A stretch of DNA of 64,000 nucleotides from Escherichia coli 042. Its GTDB lineage: Bacteria > Pseudomonadota > Gammaproteobacteria > Enterobacterales > Enterobacteriaceae. Below are positions 3,211-63,442 of this stretch, piece by piece (positions within the stretch are counted from its first letter, which is position 1; each line of letters opens with the position of its first letter). The stretch lies in the NCBI RefSeq assembly GCF_000027125.1, contig NC_017626.1, one strand, 5' to 3'. Position numbers and translations under genes: made by a program. A model generated the notes under the pieces. That model did not search any database. It had not been told where the DNA came from and saw only the letters and a program-made list of their open reading frames with translations.

Positions 3211-3501
3211 CCTGGCCTGAAGCATTAACAACGGTAGGAATTGCGATGGCGGTGGCGCTGGTGGTGTATTCGATTTGCCGCTGGGGATAAAAACGGTTTG
3301 CGGGAAAAGGAGAGTTAAGTAGAATTGCAGCGGGTGCTTGAGGCTATCTGTCTCAGGCATGAACACCAAAAGGCAGATAGAGAAAAGCCCCAGTTAACAT
3401 TACGCGTCCGGCAAGACGCTTAACATTAATCTGAGGCCATATCTATGCTCTACACACGTAGGTTAGCCTCTTACGTGCCGAAAGGCAAGGAGAAGCAGGC
3501 T

Positions 3502-3657
3502 ATGAAGCAGCAAAAGGCGATGCTAATCGCCCTGATCGTCATCTGTTTAACCGTCATTGTGACGGCACTGGTAACGAGGAAAGACCTCTGCGAGGTACGA
3601 ATCCGAACCGGCCAGACGGAGGTCGCTGTCTTCACAGCTTACGAACCTGAGGAGTAA
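3502..3657 (+). CDS. hokD: Hok/Gef-family type I toxin (HokD/RelF-like)
   Basis: 51-aa product MKQQKAMLIALIVICLTVIVTALVTRKDLCEVRIRTGQTEVAVFTAYEPEE matches my recollection of the Hok family (TM helix, conserved Cys, C-terminal AYE); in-frame upstream extension from 3445; hairpins downstream. Confidence 0.8.
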   Translation: MKQQKAMLIALIVICLTVIVTALVTRKDLCEVRIRTGQTEVAVFTAYEPEE

Positions 3658-7655: not shown

Positions 7656-8473
7656 AACTGGAAGATTTACCGAAATACTACTCCCCAAAATCCCCCGGCC
7701 TGACTGATGCATCGGCCTCAACGTCGAAAGATGCGCTGAGTATCACTGATGTGATGGCCGCGCAGGGCATGACACAGAATCGGGCTGAGATGGGGTTTTC
7801 TGCGTTCCTTGGGAAAATGGGCATTAGTATGAATGACAGAGAGCGGGCAACAGAATTGCTGACAGAATATGCACTCAGGCGGTGTGATCGCGTGGCGGCG
7901 TTAAGAAAACTCCCGGCAGAAATAAAACCGGCAGTGATGCGTATTATGGCTTCGTATGCGTTTGAAGATTATGCCCGTAGCGCGGCGAGCAAAAAACAGT
8001 GCTCCTGCTGTCACGGAAAAAAATTTATTGAAAGCGAGGTTTTTACAAACAAGATCCAGTATCCGGATGGTAAGCCGCCGGTATGGGCAAAGTGTACGAA
8101 AGGTGTGTATCCGTCTTACTGGGAAGAATGGAAAAAAGTCAGGGAGGTGGTAAAAGTTGCCTGTCCGGAGTGTGGCGGAAAGGGTGAGGTTTCCACCGCC
8201 TGTAAGGATTGCCGTGGGCGTGGTGTCGCCATTCATCGTGAAGAGTCGGTAAAACGTGGTATGCCTGTTATCAGAGACTGCCAGCGTTGTGGTGGTCGTG
8301 GCTGTGAAAGACTACCATCAACGGAGGCATTTAATGCCATATGCAAAGTGACGAGTGCTATCACGCTTGATACGTGGAAAAAATCAGTGAAACGCTTTTA
8401 CGATACGTTGGTGGTTCGGTTTGACATTGAAGAGGCATGGGCGGAGCGGCAGTTAAAGAGGGTAACGCGATAG
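7652..8473 (+). CDS. Late-gene antiterminator Q-like protein (QuuQ-type) with zinc fingers
   Basis: 273 aa with repeated CxxCxGxG motifs; follows rusA and precedes a terminator and the late region. Confidence 0.6.
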   Translation: MKLEDLPKYYSPKSPGLTDASASTSKDALSITDVMAAQGMTQNRAEMGFSAFLGKMGISMNDRERATELLTEYALRRCDRVAALRKLPAEIKPAVMRIMASYAFEDYARSAASKKQCSCCHGKKFIESEVFTNKIQYPDGKPPVWAKCTKGVYPSYWEEWKKVREVVKVACPECGGKGEVSTACKDCRGRGVAIHREESVKRGMPVIRDCQRCGGRGCERLPSTEAFNAICKVTSAITLDTWKKSVKRFYDTLVVRFDIEEAWAERQLKRVTR

Positions 8474-8555
8474 TGTTGTTGATTTTTCCCGAATCTGTGG
8501 TAAATTTGCTCTAACGATGGGCGTTTTATGCCTGACGTTAGAAGATTTTTTACAC

Positions 8556-8577
8556 CCCGCCGCCTGGCGGGTTTTTT
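8556..8577 (+). terminator. Rho-independent terminator, probably tR' of the late promoter region
   Basis: cccgcc gcct ggcggg hairpin followed by TTTTTT just downstream of Q. Confidence 0.5.
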
Positions 8578-8699
8578 ATGACTGAAATCGCGTCAGTACA
8601 GTAAACGCGCTGGTGGCGGTGAATACCTGTCTTTCAGCTTGCTGGCTTTTTCGACAAGAGTTATTGGTGTGTCACGTTAACCGGGAAAGGGAAAAAGAC

Positions 8700-8897
8700 A
8701 TGCTAAAACAGCAGGATATGACAGAAACCGCCAGAGTAGTGTTTAATGAATTAAGCGTTACCGAACCGGCGACAGTCGGGGAGATAGCGCAGAATACTTA
8801 CCTTTCACGCGAACGCTGCCAGTTAATACTGACCCAGCTGGTTATGGCGGGTCTGGCAGACTATCAGTTCGGTTGTTACAGACGCCTTCCGCAGTGA
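8700..8897 (+). CDS. Hypothetical small protein, possibly winged-helix
   Basis: ATG at 8700 within ORF 8613..8897. Confidence 0.35.
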   Translation: MLKQQDMTETARVVFNELSVTEPATVGEIAQNTYLSRERCQLILTQLVMAGLADYQFGCYRRLPQ

Positions 8898-9047
8898 AGG
8901 CTTTTTTATTTGTGGTAAATGGGCGGCTGGTGGGTGTTAGGGGCACCCACCAGCCATCTGCTCATGCGTTGGGTTCACAAGCAAACCTCAGGCCCACTGC
9001 TTTGCGCAAAAGCAGAATGAGCCTATCAGAGACAGGCTTAATGATCC

Positions 9048-10097
9048 ATGCTTAATACTGTAAAAATATCCAGTTGTGAGTTAATCAACGCCGACTGCCT
9101 GGAATTTATCCGGTCGTTACCCGAAAATTCTGTTGACCTGATAGTCACGGACCCGCCGTACTTTAAAGTGAAGCCTGAAGGCTGGGATAACCAGTGGAAG
9201 GGCGACGATGATTACCTGAAGTGGCTGGACCAGTGTCTGGCGCAGTTCTGGCGGGTGCTGAAACCTGCCGGAAGTCTTTACCTGTTCTGTGGTCATCGCC
9301 TGGCATCTGATATCGAAATCATGATGCGTGAACGCTTCAGTGTGCTGAACCATATTATCTGGGCGAAGCCGTCCGGACGCTGGAACGGATGCAACAAGGA
9401 AAGCCTGCGGGCGTATTTCCCCGCCACAGAGCGCATTCTGTTCGCGGAACATTATCAGGGGCCGTATCGTCCGAAAGATGCCGGGTATGCGGCGAAGGGC
9501 AGTGCACTGAAACAGCATGTGATGGCCCCGCTGATTTCTTACTTTCGTGATGCGCGCGCGGCCCTGGGGATAACGGCAAAACAGATTGCAGATGCCACAG
9601 GAAAGAAAAACATGGTGTCGCACTGGTTCAGTGCCAGTCAGTGGCAGCTACCGAACGAAAGCGATTATCTGAAATTACAGTCGCTGTTTGCCCGGGTGGC
9701 AGAAGAGAAACATCAGCGCGGTGAACTGGAAAAGCCCCACCACCAGCTGGTGGATACGTATACGTCACTGAACCGGCAGTATGTGGAGCTGCAGAGTGAA
9801 TATAAGCATCTGCGGCGGTATTTTGGTGTGACGGCGCAGGTGCCGTACACGGATGTGTGGACACATAAACCGGTGCAGTTCTATCCCGGGAAACATCCGT
9901 GCGAAAAACCGGCAGAAATGCTGCAGCAGATAATCAGCGCAAGCAGTCGTCCGGGTGACCTGGTTGCAGATTTTTTTATGGGCTCAGGTTCAACGGTAAA
10001 AGCGGCACTGGCGCTCGGGCGTCGTGCGATTGGCGTTGAACTGGAGACCGGACGTTTTGAGCAGACAGTCAGGGAAGTTCAGGATTTAATCGTTTGA
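9048..10097 (+). CDS. DNA N6-adenine/N4-cytosine methyltransferase (beta-class), no partner nuclease seen
   Basis: IVTDPPYF (motif IV) near the N-terminus and FMGSGST (motif I) near the C-terminus. Confidence 0.8.
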   Translation: MLNTVKISSCELINADCLEFIRSLPENSVDLIVTDPPYFKVKPEGWDNQWKGDDDYLKWLDQCLAQFWRVLKPAGSLYLFCGHRLASDIEIMMRERFSVLNHIIWAKPSGRWNGCNKESLRAYFPATERILFAEHYQGPYRPKDAGYAAKGSALKQHVMAPLISYFRDARAALGITAKQIADATGKKNMVSHWFSASQWQLPNESDYLKLQSLFARVAEEKHQRGELEKPHHQLVDTYTSLNRQYVELQSEYKHLRRYFGVTAQVPYTDVWTHKPVQFYPGKHPCEKPAEMLQQIISASSRPGDLVADFFMGSGSTVKAALALGRRAIGVELETGRFEQTVREVQDLIV

Positions 10098-10146
10098 AAC
10101 GGATGAGATTGCAGAATTAATTACGCACCATTATTATTCTGCTCCC

Positions 10147-10222
10147 GGCCCTTTAGCTCAGTGGTGAGAGCGAGCGACTCATAATCGCCAGGTCGCTGGT
10201 TCAAATCCAGCAAGGGCCACCA
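10147..10222 (+). tRNA. ileZ: tRNA with CAT anticodon, Ile2 (lysidine)-type or Met
   Basis: 76-nt cloverleaf: acceptor ggccctt/aagggcc, T-arm gctgg-ttcaaat-ccagc, anticodon loop ctCATaa, 3' CCA; close to recalled E. coli tRNA-Ile2. Confidence 0.85.
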
Positions 10223-10229
10223 TCACATA

Positions 10230-10306
10230 CCGCCATTAGCTCATCAGGAAAGAGCGCCAGCCTTCGAAGCTGGTTGCGCGGAGTTCGGGTCCCCGAAGGC
10301 GGTCCA
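10230..10306 (+). tRNA. tRNA-Arg (anticodon TCG as read)
   Basis: 77-nt cloverleaf: anticodon stem ccagc/gctgg with loop ctTCGaa, 3' CCA; one mismatch each in acceptor and T stems. Confidence 0.6.
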
Positions 10307-10319
10307 TTATCTGTATCCT

Positions 10320-10396
10320 GCGTTGTTAGCTCAGCCGGACAGAGCAATTGCCTTCTAAGCAATCGGTCACTGGTTCGAATCCAGTACAACGCGCCA
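10320..10396 (+). tRNA. tRNA-Arg (anticodon TCT)
   Basis: 77-nt cloverleaf: acceptor gcgttgt/acaacgc, T-arm actgg-ttcgaat-ccagt, anticodon loop ctTCTaa, 3' CCA. Confidence 0.85.
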
Positions 10397-10440
10397 CACT
10401 TATTTTCCCTGGCTCGCTTTTGCGGGCTTTTTTTTAAATG

Positions 10441-10656
10441 TCTCACAATTCAGGCGGTTGACTGTTGTCTGGTTTGCGGGGAGTTTGTTAAAAGAAACTG
10501 GCATGGTGAATCCCCCTGTGCGGAGGGGCAATCAGCGAGTAGGTATATGGGATAATCGCGGATTCAGGTGCTGGTACTGAATTCACCGGGAGGCACCCGG
10601 CACCATGCAATGGCACATAGCGCCACTCTCCAGCCCCTCTCCGGAGGGGCTTTTCT
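10441..10656 (+). repeat. Structured repeat unit 1 (sRNA-like: promoter-like box, hairpins, terminator)
   Basis: Shares with unit 2 the blocks tcacaattcag, ttgac, ttgttaaaa, gcatggtgaatccccctg.gcggagggg, gtataat/ggataat, caccgggaggcacccggcaccatg and terminator gcccctctccggaggggc+T-run. Confidence 0.55.
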
Positions 10657-10908
10657 GTGCCGGATACATCACAGTTTCTGGAACCTTAGGTACTACAGTA
10701 TCAGTCAGGGTGCTATATTTTCAGATGTGATGAAAGCCTGTCAGCAGGCAGGGCGTATCGGAAATGACCCAGTAGAGAAAACGTTGACTCAGATACCGGT
10801 GCTGAGTTACCGGGAAACCGGCATCACATGACCGCTATCCTTCCAGGCCCATCCGCTCCGGTGGGCCTTTTTACTGCAGAAAACAGGTTCCCCGTTAAAT
10901 GCTATGTT

Positions 10909-11141
10909 GCTCACAATTCAGTAAGTTGACAGTTGCCTGTCAGACTGGGCATTTGTTAAAAAAATTTCGCATGGTGAATCCCCCTGAGCGGAGGGGCGAC
11001 TGGTGACGGTATAATCTCTGATTATCAAAACGAGAATGACGCGGGTTTAGTGGCACCGGACTGAACTCACCGGGAGGCACCCGGCACCATGTGCATGATG
11101 ATACAGATACGCGGCTTTAGCCCCTCTCCGGAGGGGCTTTC
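10909..11141 (+). repeat. Structured repeat unit 2 (sRNA-like)
   Basis: Second diverged copy of the same ~220-bp unit, with a perfect TATAAT at 11010-11015. Confidence 0.55.
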
Positions 11142-11371
11142 TTATGGACAAAAAAAGCCCGCGCTGGGAGACGCGGGCGGCAAGGAATAAACAATAAAAC
11201 GTGAAGTAATATTTCAGCTGGCGAATAATACCCCATAGTAATCACTCTGCGCAACTGCGCGGTCTTTTTCGAATTGCGGGCTGTAGTCTCCCTTCTGCCA
11301 TTGTCCTGTAACTTCCGGACTTCAGCCTGCTCCTTATCTGACTCACAACATTATCCCGCCCGGGAGGATTC

Positions 11372-13225
11372 ATGGCATTTAAACACTATGACGTGGTCAG
11401 GGCGGCATCGCCGTCAGACCTTGCGAAACGACTGACACAAAAACTGAAGGAGGGCTGGCAGCCGTTTGGTAGTCCGGTGGCCATAACCCCTTATACCCTG
11501 ATGCAGGCGATTGCAGCAGAAGGTGATGTGGTCGTCAGTGGTGCAACTGAGCCGGAGTGGTACTACGTCATCGTACTGGCCGGGCAATCCAATGCCATGG
11601 CTTACGGTGAAGGGCTTCCGCTTCCGGATTCATACGATGCGCCCCATCCGCGCATTAAGCAACTGGCCCGTCGTAACACAGTGACTCCCGGTGGTGAAGT
11701 ATGCGTATTTAACGACATCATTCCTGCTGACCATTGTCTGCATGATGTTCAGGATATGAGTACGATTAACCATCCCCGGGCTGACCTGAGCAAAGGGCAG
11801 TACGGCTGTGTCGGACAGGGCTTACATATTGCCAAAAAACTGCTTCCGTATATCCCTAATAATGCGGGGATCCTGCTGGTACCATGCTGTCGTGGTGGTT
11901 CGGCATTCACCCAGGGCACGGAGGGGACATTCAGCGAGTCCACGGGAGCCAGTCAGGATTCGGCTCGCTGGGGAGTGGGTAAGCCGTTATATCAGGATCT
12001 GCTTTTCCGCACGAAGGCAGCATTGCAGAAAAACCCGAAAAACGTTTTGCTGGCGATATGCTGGATGCAGGGGGAATTCGATATGACGAATGCCAGTTAC
12101 GCCCAGCAGCCAGCAGCATTTCTTGCAATGGTACAGCAGTTCCGTGCTGACCTTGCCGGGCTGGCAGCGCAGTGTCACGGTGGAAGTCCGGCATCAGTCC
12201 CCTGGATTTGTGGCGACACGACATACGCGTGGAAACAAGAACACGGTACGCAATATGAAGTGGTATATGGTGCATATAAAGGTAAAGAATCCCAGCAGAT
12301 TTATTTTGTTCCCTTTATGACCGATGGTAGCGGAGTTAATACACCGACAAACAACCCGTCAGAAGATCCTGATATTGCCGGGTCTGGTTATTACGGTTCG
12401 GCATCCCGAACGAACAAAAACTGGGTATCATCAAATCGCCCGACGCATTTCAGCTCATGGGCGCGTCGTGGCATTATTCCCGATCGTATGGCAACTGCTA
12501 TTCTGAACGTAGCCGGTCGCACCTTAGCCTTCATTAGTGGTAAGGCACCGGAAATCAAACCCTCGCCCGGCGGCGACACGCCATTGGGGCCGTCTGAAGA
12601 TGCATCCATACGCACAATCTCCCTGTTGCCGACAGCCGGAGACGCTGCTGCGCAGGGCTGGAGCATTAAGAATGGCGGAATTCAGTTGTCAGATGGTGTA
12701 TTTAAGATCACCAAGCAGAGCAATAAAGCCTGGTCCCTGACGCGCCCGGTGGATGACGCAGTCTCCCTGCTGACACGGGGTGGCAGACTGAGCTGTAAGT
12801 TTCGACTGTCAGGCGCACTGACCAACAATCAGTTCGGTCTGGGAATTTATCTGTATACCGATGTAGCGTTACCTGACGTCGTGGCGATGACCGGGACTGG
12901 TAACCCGTTCCTGATGTCGTTCTTCACCCAGACCACAGACGGCAAACTGAATCTGATGCATCACAAGAAAGCAGGAAACACAAAGTTGGGCGAGTTCGGG
13001 AATTACAGTAACGACTGGCAGACGCTGGAGCTGGTGTTCACCGCCGGCAGTGCCACGGTTACTCCGAAACTGAATGGAGTGGCTGGCCCGGCATTCCAGG
13101 TCATAAAAGACAGTCTGACACTGGGGCTGAATGCGCTGACGCTGACGGATATTACCAAAAATGCAGCGTATGGCGTTGAGATAGAAAGTCTGGTGCTGGA
13201 GATAAATGCACCGGCATCATCATAA
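11372..13225 (+). CDS. Phage NanS-p-like sialate O-acetylesterase (DUF1737 + SGNH hydrolase)
   Basis: 617 aa; N-terminal MAFKHYDVV... and GQSNAMAYGEG esterase motif; occupies the post-tRNA position before the lysis genes. Confidence 0.75.
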   Translation: MAFKHYDVVRAASPSDLAKRLTQKLKEGWQPFGSPVAITPYTLMQAIAAEGDVVVSGATEPEWYYVIVLAGQSNAMAYGEGLPLPDSYDAPHPRIKQLARRNTVTPGGEVCVFNDIIPADHCLHDVQDMSTINHPRADLSKGQYGCVGQGLHIAKKLLPYIPNNAGILLVPCCRGGSAFTQGTEGTFSESTGASQDSARWGVGKPLYQDLLFRTKAALQKNPKNVLLAICWMQGEFDMTNASYAQQPAAFLAMVQQFRADLAGLAAQCHGGSPASVPWICGDTTYAWKQEHGTQYEVVYGAYKGKESQQIYFVPFMTDGSGVNTPTNNPSEDPDIAGSGYYGSASRTNKNWVSSNRPTHFSSWARRGIIPDRMATAILNVAGRTLAFISGKAPEIKPSPGGDTPLGPSEDASIRTISLLPTAGDAAAQGWSIKNGGIQLSDGVFKITKQSNKAWSLTRPVDDAVSLLTRGGRLSCKFRLSGALTNNQFGLGIYLYTDVALPDVVAMTGTGNPFLMSFFTQTTDGKLNLMHHKKAGNTKLGEFGNYSNDWQTLELVFTAGSATVTPKLNGVAGPAFQVIKDSLTLGLNALTLTDITKNAAYGVEIESLVLEINAPASS

Positions 13226-39916: not shown

Positions 39917-40500
39917 TGGTATTCAGAATGAGTGAACAACCACGGACCATAACAATTTATAATCTGCTGGCCGGAACTAATGAATTTATTGGTGAAGGTG
40001 ATGCATATATTCCGCCTCATACAGGTCTGCCAGCAAACAGTACCGATATTGCACCGCCAGATATTCCGGCAGGCTTCGTGGCTGTTTTCAACAGTGATGA
40101 GGCATCGTGGCATCTCGTTGAAGATCATCGGGGTAAAACGGTTTATGACGTGGCTTCCGGCGACGCGTTATTTATTTCTGAACTCGGTCCGTTACCGGAA
40201 AATGTTACCTGGTTATCGCCGGAAGGGGAGTTTCAGAAGTGGAACGGCACAGCCTGGGTGAAGGATACGGAAGCAGAAAAACTGTTCCGGATCCGGGAGG
40301 CGGAAGAAACAAAAAACAACCTGATGCAGGTAGCCAGTGAGCATATTGCGCCGCTTCAGGATGCTGCAGATCTGGAAATTGCAACGGAGGAAGAAACCTC
40401 ATTGCTGGAAGCCTGGAAAAAGTATCGGGTGTTGCTGAACCGTGTTGATACATCAACTGCACCTGATATTGAGTGGCCTACGAACCCTGTCAGGGAGTAA
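39916..40500 (+). CDS. tfa: Tail fibre assembly protein
   Basis: 194 aa directly after stf with ATGA overlap. Confidence 0.8.
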
Positions 40501-50562: not shown

Positions 50563-50589
50563 AATTTTGTTCAAAAAAAGCCCGCTCAT
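50563..50589 (-). terminator. trp attenuator terminator
   Basis: agcccgcctaatgagcgggc plus U-run on the minus strand, between trpL and trpE. Confidence 0.85.
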
Positions 50590-50641
50590 TAGGCGGGCTG
50601 GGTATCTGATTGCTTTACGCATGGTGAATACACTGCCCGTT

Positions 50642-50686
50642 TCAGGAAGTGCGCCACCAACCTTTCAGTACGAAAATTGCTTTCAT
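50642..50686 (-). CDS. trpL: trp operon leader peptide
   Basis: Reverse complement reads atgaaagcaattttcgtactgaaaggttggtggcgcacttcctga = [14 protein letters not shown] with tandem Trp codons. Confidence 0.95.
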
Positions 50687-63070: not shown

Positions 63071-63442
63071 TTATCATCATTCTTATTACCCATTTTTAAT
63101 CAATTAAAGGGCTTTTAATACACCGCAGCAATAACAGGTTGAGTTATCTCAACACAAAGTAATAACCGTTAAGGGTGTAGCCTATGATCAACACAAATAT
63201 GAAATATTGGTCCTGGATGGGCGCATTTTCTCTGTCGATGCTCTTCTGGGCCGAACTCCTCTGGATCATTACTCACTGATCCCTGACCCCGCTGCGGCGG
63301 GGTTTTCATTTGCTTTGCCACAAGGTTTCTCCTCTTTTATCAATTTGGGTTGTTATCAAATCGTTACGCGATGTTTGTGTTATCTTTAATATTCACCCTG
63401 AAGAGAATCAGGGCTTCGCAACCCTGTCATTAAGGAGGAGCT

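Follow-up and report, generated by a model that had tools for sequence, protein, structure and literature searches.

Tandem STnc100-family small RNA genes in the late region of a lambdoid prophage of Escherichia coli 042

We analysed a 64,000-nucleotide stretch of the Escherichia coli 042 genome (contig NC_017626.1 of assembly GCF_000027125.1; hereafter the window), focusing on positions 10397-11371. This region is intergenic and lies between three prophage tRNA genes and an open reading frame (ORF) for a 617-amino-acid esterase (11372-13225). A preliminary description had proposed that it holds duplicated small RNA (sRNA) genes, complete with a promoter and a terminator apiece, in the slot where Stx phages carry stxAB. 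This core idea is supported, and the family can now be named as STnc100 (Rfam RF02076). In a 100%-identical genome annotated with the Prokaryotic Genome Annotation Pipeline (PGAP), the order is hokD, rem, DUF968, RusA, antiterminator Q, a small ORF and a DNA methyltransferase, followed by the three tRNAs, the intergenic region, esterase, holin, lysozyme, Rz and terminase. The region is therefore the late or 'moron' region of a lambdoid prophage, which is the location expected of STnc100, and prophages Sp4 and Sp5 of the O157 strain Sakai are arranged alike. In Sp5 the order is Q, ileZ-argN-argO, stx2A, stx2B, STnc100/EcOnc27, AsxR and esterase ECs_1207, that is, the same frame of Q, tRNA and esterase genes with stx2AB between them, as the proposed placement implies. 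Although the slot is the stx slot, STnc100 is not a stand-in for stx, since in Stx2 phages it adjoins stx2B on the downstream side.

Family membership was examined by scanning the whole window with Rfam models. The 206-position covariance model of STnc100 (gathering score 47 bits) matched over positions 1-206 at two places, unit 1 (10472-10662; 136.3 bits, E = 7e-30) and unit 2 (10940-11149; 165.4 bits, E = 2.5e-37), so that the Rfam scan suggested in the preliminary description gives both of its units a name. Judged by these matches, units 1 and 2 are full-length members of STnc100, a known prophage sRNA family that is multi-copy in E. coli and Salmonella prophages. The two homologous segments of ~220 bp that had been delimited (10441-10656 and 10909-11141) share 81% mean column identity over 270 columns, and the boxes and hairpins listed for them were all found at, or 1-2 nt from, the positions given. 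The two tandem copies are thus real, but there are three units in all: a permissive scan revealed an overlooked plus-strand match to STnc100 at 10701-10874 (30.1 bits, E = 1.8e-4), here called the middle unit. Weak matches to OmrA-B (25 bits, minus strand), Ysr49 and anti-hemB were below the gathering score and were taken as chance.

STnc100 is among the most frequently annotated sRNAs of bacterial genomes, with its function given as unknown (PMC9029176). In strain EDL933, 11 copies have RNA-seq reads and one was verified by Northern blotting (PMC5331693). The Hfq-bound sRNA EcOnc27/sRNA103 overlaps a copy that lies 75 nt downstream of stx2B (PMC12370729, PMC12711010, PMC7873438), and overexpression of this sRNA raises espA and fimZ transcripts, apparently indirectly (PMC5030294). 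For the window, the closest published evidence concerns unit 1. Its predicted RNA matches the Sakai Sp4 copy, where Hfq-bound EcOnc05 was mapped, with 100% identity across 153 nt; the published EcOnc05 Northern probe matches at 10530-10564 with 0 mismatches, and the EcOnc06 probe with one. EcOnc05, EcOnc06 and EcOnc27 are sRNAs recovered by Hfq cross-linking and analysis of cDNA (Hfq-CRAC) that also give Northern bands (Tree et al, 2014; PMC4104026 Table S2), both kinds of evidence being published for the sequence identical to unit 1 (EcOnc05). Expression as a discrete, Hfq-associated sRNA has thus been reported for the identical Sakai sequence and for EDL933 copies, and is a prediction for the units of the window.

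All three units, when folded alone from their predicted 5' ends, adopt the family architecture as their minimum free energy (MFE) structure. The order shared is an 8-bp closing stem, hairpin 1, a variable hairpin, hairpin 2, hairpin 3, a mostly single-stranded stretch and the terminator; for unit 2, folded from G10969, the MFE is -64.8 kcal/mol. Copies were gathered from viral contigs with the 16-nt motif CATGGTGAATCCNCCT, which gave 120 loci and 94 distinct units. These were reduced to 48 representatives at 3% divergence, and four unrelated chance matches (L006, L007, L008 and L112) were dropped before the covariation test, leaving 44 copies aligned with MAFFT. The Rfam consensus structure was then projected through unit 2 onto this alignment and pairs were counted. 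Hairpin 2 was 99% paired, with six of its seven pairs changed on both sides in a compensatory manner, and five of the nine terminator pairs showed such changes. The closing stem was 97% paired, its 5' arm being fixed by the search motif and hence uninformative for covariation, and hairpins 1 and 3 were almost invariant. The minor helices 1, 4, 5 and 8 of the Rfam model were unsupported in the 44 copies (29-56% paired). The observed covariation score was reached in none of 500 shuffles, and sliding the 3' partners by 1-3 columns lowered pairing from 83% to 40-51%. Covariation across homologous prophages, which had been put forward as a check, therefore supports the fold. Because compensatory changes preserve the helices, selection appears to act on RNA structure and not on DNA identity alone.

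Could the units instead encode small proteins? PGAP places a pseudogene for a 'hypothetical protein' antisense to unit 1 (L003 6092-6217, corresponding to window 10491-10616, minus strand), ORFs lie antisense to the distantly related sRNAs PasD1 and PasD2, and one EDL933 copy has ribosome footprints (RCV 3.2; PMC5331693). Among the 19 of 44 members examined, however, the longest ORFs varied in strand, frame, start codon and length (19-61 amino acids); the reading frame that starts at the ATG of GCATGG is 25 codons long in unit 1 but only 11 in unit 2, and indels between copies are not multiples of three. Protein coding was rejected on this lack of any ORF conserved in strand, frame or length, in line with the earlier remark that no convincing ORF spans the units, and we regard it as extremely improbable. 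The RefSeq 'hypothetical protein' coding sequences and pseudogenes antisense to PasD1/PasD2 (L001 1698-1939, L002 1801-2199) and to unit 1 are probably spurious.

The starts of the RNAs can be predicted from PasD2 of enteropathogenic E. coli (EPEC), for which common ancestry with STnc100 was concluded, together with PasD1, in a 2026 preprint (10.64898/2026.05.13.724894). The 5' end of PasD2, determined by RNA-seq and Northern blotting (172 nt), is at NC_011601 position 741157 (PMC8550237 Table S6). It aligns to the G of GCATGGTG and is preceded by TTGACT, 18 nt and TAAAAA, which would put the starts of units 1 and 2 at ~10501 and ~10969. G10501 is preceded by TGtTAAAAG and G10969 by TGtTAAAAA, with the -35-like hexamers TTGTCT and TTGCCT 18 nt farther upstream, and the TTTGTTAAAAA block is conserved family-wide (entropy 0.46, flanks 1.2-1.4). 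Based on this homology and conservation, from which all promoter calls were made, the likely promoters are extended -10 elements, TGnTAAAA(A/G), giving RNAs of about 150-180 nt. The TTGAC box was rejected as the -35 element: it is 25 nt from the conserved TAAAA(A/G), and the PasD -35 aligns to TTGTCT/TTGCCT, 7 nt downstream of it. Nor did the internal GATAAT (10551-10556) and TATAAT (11010-11015), previously read as -10-like elements, withstand comparison; both are in a hypervariable segment (VAR1), are non-homologous and unaligned to each other, and are without a conserved -35 or TG. The RNA length of 90-120 nt that had been suggested likewise finds no support, since the predicted starts give about 158 and 178 nt and close homologues run at 177-247 nt on Northerns. 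In published work EcOnc05 runs at ~222 nt, EcOnc27 at ~235/247 nt and EcOnc08 at ~271 nt (Tree et al; PMC4104026). The longer bands may reflect starts farther upstream or read-through of weak U-tracts. A CTCACAATTCAG-N4-5-TTGAC block (10441-10463 and 10909-10931) is common to units 1 and 2 and the Sakai Sp4 and Sp5 copies; it sits upstream of the predicted promoter, might belong to a longer transcript and could explain the Northern sizes.

The promoter reading also bears on polymorphisms associated with haemolytic uraemic syndrome (HUS), namely a T<->C single-nucleotide polymorphism at ~+90 and a T deletion at ~+103 after stx2B (Paganini et al, 2025). On this reading, they map to the TG of the extended -10 (TGtTAAAAA) and to the discriminator of the predicted EcOnc27/STnc100 promoter (L004 3935-3951, Sakai Sp5), and locus L064 has both changes (TTCGTTAAAAAAA-TTCG). 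This suggests that the HUS-linked polymorphisms may alter sRNA transcription, and the extended -10 (TGnTAAAAA) offers a concrete and testable account of the two.

The middle unit, folded alone, has the same architecture as the family (z = -2.8). Three pairs of its closing stem, AUGUGAUG/CAUCACAU, depart from the canonical GCAUGGUG/CACCAUGC, each with a compensating change, and the remaining helices are all present in a sequence different from the canonical one. The hairpin at 10848-10872 is terminator-like, as the preliminary description had it, but is no free-standing extra, being the terminator of this unit. The middle unit occurs in 672 of 5426 complete E. coli genomes (~12%), without annotation in all of them. 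There are two variants, one (>=99% identity) accounting for 344 records and the other (about 91%) for 327, and both keep hairpin 1 and the terminator via compensated or register-shifted stems. E. coli ATCC 11775 and 55989 each have a middle unit that is 100% identical. It is not a decayed remnant. Whether it represents a functional third STnc100/PasD subfamily, with tandem arrays arising from cassette shuffling that diversifies sRNA specificities, is a tentative suggestion that we hold to be possible but rather doubtful.

Variation along the RNA is strongly partitioned. Column entropy among the 44 copies is 0.12 in the closing stem and hairpin 1 and 0.46 in hairpins 2-3, but 1.3-1.7 in two variable segments, VAR1, which separates hairpin 1 from hairpin 2, and VAR2, which links the closing stem to the terminator. 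Thirteen types of VAR1 and 13 of VAR2 were found, paired in 23 ways, and one set contained all four pairings, which implies that the cassettes reassort. In VAR2 the three units of the window all differ from one another. Compared with the Sakai copies, unit 2 has an Sp5-like 5' half joined to a different VAR2 cassette, and the window is pieced together, as a mosaic, from Sp4-like and Sp5-like segments. Tandem arrays are no rarity: two to four copies are present at 12 of the 120 viral loci, and 352 of the 5426 E. coli genomes hold >=80% of the exact 851-bp array. Abutting arrays of 2-3 canonical STnc100 units, with ~260-273-bp spacing and different VAR cassettes, were also seen at L065 7212-7967 and L115 9118-9615, indicating that tandem amplification recurs in several architectures. 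The cassette combinations and the mosaic window would fit repeats that serve chiefly as recombination modules for moron exchange between lambdoid prophages, their RNA function being unselected. Such a role would leave no reason for helices to be preserved by compensatory changes, and transcripts and Hfq binding are documented for the family; we therefore consider it very unlikely.

Downstream of unit 2 the minus strand is predicted to carry a convergent sRNA gene. Segment 11151-11262 shares 93.75% identity over 112 nt with the Sakai Sp4 segment where minus-strand EcOnc08 was mapped, the EcOnc08/21/42 probe matches in minus sense at 11224-11258 with 5 of 35 mismatches, and the 3' end of the RNA resembles the EPEC candidate E2348C_1409-1408 intergenic region (IGR) from RIL-seq, in which interacting RNAs are ligated and sequenced. 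The hairpin at 11154-11180 had been recognised as terminator-like, which is correct, but it was assigned to the wrong strand: the plus-strand A-run is a T7 tract on the minus strand, where the terminator is a strong one. Its identity to Sp4 and its convergence with an STnc100 copy place it with EcOnc08/21/42. At least eight Sakai prophages have such convergent sRNA dyads 3' of PR' (Tree et al, 2014; PMC4104026). The AsxR/AgvB anti-sRNAs were rejected as an identity for this hairpin. The Sp5 alignment shows an unrelated cassette there, no match to RF02702 or RF02703 was obtained at E <= 1 within 10350-11400, and the conserved ~42-nt AsxR/AgvB 3' region, AGTATCTCATGC(A/T)(A/T)TTGCCCGAACCCA(C/T)TCGGGC, was not found in it. 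The minus-strand RNA possibly extends towards 11343-11420; at ~271 nt it would be antisense to the esterase 5' untranslated region and start codon (11372), and a promoter-like ATGCCA-17-GATAAT is present at 11378-11350 on the minus strand. The coordinates of all features are collected in the table.

Table. Features of the sRNA island and its flanks in the window (RNA ends and promoters are predicted)
Feature	Position	Strand	Remarks
tRNA-Ile/Met(CAT), tRNA-Arg(TCG), tRNA-Arg(TCT)	10147-10396		ileZ-argN-argO-like cluster
Intrinsic terminator of tRNA cluster	10411-10436	+	left edge of sRNA island; terminator scan, 7-bp stem + T8
Unit 1, STnc100-family sRNA gene	10458-10662	+	RF02076 match; MFE fold = family fold
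Unit 1 TTGACT box	10458-10463	+	
Unit 1 -35-like TTGTCT	10465-10470	+	
Unit 1 extended -10 TGtTAAAAG	10486-10494	+	
Unit 1 predicted RNA	~10501-10658	+	158 nt; start by homology to PasD2 5' end
Unit 1 closing stem	10501-10508/10601-10608	+	
Unit 1 hairpin 1 (GC hairpin)	10513-10528	+	
Unit 1 VAR1	10529-10559	+	contains GATAAT
Unit 1 hairpin 2	10560-10584	+	
Unit 1 hairpin 3 (ccggg-aggca-cccgg)	10586-10600	+	
Unit 1 VAR2	10609-10631	+	candidate seed
Unit 1 terminator	10632-10651	+	
Middle unit, diverged third copy	10701-10874	+	sub-threshold STnc100 match; folds alone
Middle unit extended -10 TGcTATATT	10711-10719	+	4-6 nt 5' of closing stem
Middle unit predicted RNA	~10724-10874	+	151 nt; inferred
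Middle unit closing stem	10725-10732/10822-10829	+	
Middle unit hairpin 1	10736-10749	+	
Middle unit hairpin 2	10785-10809	+	
Middle unit hairpin 3	10810-10821	+	
Middle unit VAR2	10830-10844	+	single-stranded; GACCGCUAUCCUUCC
Middle unit terminator	10845-10868 + T5	+	
Unit 2, STnc100-family sRNA gene	10926-11149	+	RF02076 match
Unit 2 TTGACA box	10926-10931	+	
Unit 2 -35-like TTGCCT	10933-10938	+	
Unit 2 extended -10 TGtTAAAAA	10954-10962	+	
Unit 2 predicted RNA	~10969-11146	+	178 nt; start inferred
Unit 2 closing stem	10969-10976/11085-11092	+	
Unit 2 hairpin 1 (GC hairpin)	10979-10999	+	
Unit 2 VAR1	11000-11042	+	contains TATAAT
Unit 2 hairpin 2	11043-11068	+	
Unit 2 hairpin 3 (ccggg-aggca-cccgg)	11070-11084	+	
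Unit 2 VAR2	11093-11118	+	single-stranded
Unit 2 terminator	11119-11138	+	
EcOnc08/21/42-type convergent sRNA	11150-11262	-	terminator + Sakai Sp4 identity
Terminator of convergent sRNA	stem 11178-11157, T7 at 11156-11150	-	terminator scan
Equivalent of Sakai Hfq-CRAC peak	~11152-11224	-	
Extra terminator-like hairpin in conserved leader 5' of nanS-p-like esterase gene	11247-11268	+	terminator scan; kept in Sakai Sp4, Sp5

These results are consistent with an island of three tandem STnc100 paralogues on the plus strand and one convergent EcOnc08-like RNA on the minus strand, acting as Hfq-associated base-pairing sRNAs with seeds in VAR2, which we consider probable. The directly observed points from which it starts are family membership, the conserved and covarying structure, the identity of unit 1 with an Hfq-crosslinked, Northern-detected sRNA, and genomic position. 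Each plus-strand unit would be an independent gene with an extended -10 that precedes the first RNA base by about 5-7 nt. In lysogens the RNAs would be made from their own promoters and would bind Hfq via the terminator/U-tail region; the variable stretch just 5' of the terminator would then base-pair with mRNAs, by analogy with PasD, and the different VAR2 cassettes of the three copies would select different targets. In the lytic phase, RNA polymerase modified by Q and arriving from upstream would, as in other lambdoid phages, read through all the unit terminators into the esterase and lysis genes. PasD1 and PasD2 (172-173 nt) are found in Hfq RIL-seq chimeras, are detected on Northerns and have a seed, UGUGAG, directly 5' of the terminator (PMC8550237), and in Sakai the Hfq-CRAC peaks of both EcOnc27 and EcOnc05 fall within the RNA's 3' part. 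It is pure speculation that the C/U-rich VAR2 ends CACUCUCC (unit 1) and CUAUCCUUCC (middle unit) could pair with Shine-Dalgarno regions.

Several points weigh against this interpretation. The middle unit by itself fails the STnc100 gathering score (30.1 versus 47 bits), and a generic sigma-70 scan called no plus-strand promoter at any unit, the promoters and 5' ends proposed in the window being predictions. The published Northern sizes of close homologues exceed the predicted 155-182 nt. Additionally, variation along the RNA peaks in the putative seed, and conservation is highest in the structured 5' domain, the reverse of most base-pairing sRNAs, and for canonical STnc100 the literature contains no validated direct target, the sRNA103 effects on espA and fimZ being indirect or in silico only (PMC7873438, PMC5030294). 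These last observations are what would be expected if the conserved 5' domain were the functional part, binding a conserved protein or a factor of phage or host or serving as a decoy, with the cassettes as tolerated spacers. The low entropy of that domain beside VAR1 and VAR2 and the upkeep of hairpin 2 by compensatory changes agree with such a function. However, the PasD RIL-seq chimeras and target motif map to the segment homologous to VAR2, the Hfq-CRAC peaks mentioned above are in the 3' part, and the neighbouring anti-sRNAs AsxR/AgvB also pair a variable functional region with a conserved scaffold. We therefore regard this main alternative as unlikely and favour base pairing through VAR2.

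The abundance of terminators has to be accounted for as well. Terminator-like sites number 14 in 8400-11450, against 3.5 +/- 1.7 in shuffles (terminator scan), a four-fold excess, and five plus-strand terminator-like hairpins separate the tRNAs from the esterase gene, at a site that follows Q and precedes the lysis cassette. A stack of this kind could act in cis as an insulator, keeping tRNA/moron transcription out of the esterase and lysis genes in lysogens until overridden by Q, with the RNAs as by-products. A single terminator would be enough for insulation, though, and such a role leaves unexplained the covarying internal hairpins, the conserved promoter block, the Hfq crosslinking and Northern detection of an identical sequence, and the occurrence of a unit just after stx2B, a place where co-transcription of stx with the late genes is required. 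As the main function we think insulation quite improbable, but a cis insulator role and the sRNA role may coexist. Farther upstream, at 8473-9048 downstream of the Q gene, two plus-strand terminator-like hairpins with T6 (8556-8571 and 8884-8901) are candidate tR' sites and might give a short PR'-derived RNA like StxS or lambda 6S. Other gathering-level Rfam matches in the window were sok antitoxin RNA beside hokD, IS009, STnc180 and a trp operon leader (minus strand); the coordinates reported for this group are 3332-3507, 40259-40457, 63111-63313 and 50572-50665. The trp operon leader match places the prophage near the trp locus.

The locus is real and its outline was read correctly, but the family is known and widely annotated. 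As a re-identification of a frequently annotated enterobacterial sRNA family, the result is of limited importance overall, and what is new is modest: the unannotated diverged middle copy, the cassette organisation and the promoter reading that covers the HUS-associated polymorphisms. A triple array whose diverged middle copy is missed at current Rfam thresholds, in ~12% of complete E. coli genomes, may nevertheless interest specialists, as may the HUS-related promoter reading, and the scaffold-plus-cassette layout with reassortment suggests a route by which prophage sRNA repertoires diversify.

Among the named systems nearest to the island, EcOnc05/EcOnc06 (Sakai Sp4/Sp17) share the fold and the slot after ileZ-argN-argO and before the esterase, with an EcOnc08 partner at the position of unit 2; Sp4 differs in having one copy, compared with three in tandem in the window. 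EcOnc27/sRNA103 shares the family, slot and promoter block TTTGTTAAAAAAATTTCGCATGG, binds Hfq and has a convergent antisense sRNA. In contrast, its VAR1/VAR2 cassettes and terminator are others, its partner is AsxR and not EcOnc08-like, and the window is without stx2AB. AsxR/AgvB (RF02703/RF02702) resemble the minus-strand RNA at 11150-11262 in position, convergent with an STnc100 copy, but their conserved 42-nt 3' region is unrelated in sequence to the minus-strand cassette of the window. The units are not themselves PasD: BLAST gives about 40 nt of similarity and no more (a 78.6% match across 42 nt, confined to the 5' end), the PasD probe has >=10 of 24 mismatches to the window units, and the 3' half, which in PasD includes the seed and the GCUGCGCA terminator, differs in the alignment. 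PasD1/PasD2, which score only 38-41 bits on the STnc100 model, differ in hairpin 3, closing stem, terminator and seed (UGUGAG). Even so, PasD1/PasD2 of EPEC E2348/69 (EcOnc13) share with the units the superfamily, the GCATGGTGAATCC start, the architecture and the position upstream of esterase and holin genes, and they are the sole source of a mapped 5' end and seed position.

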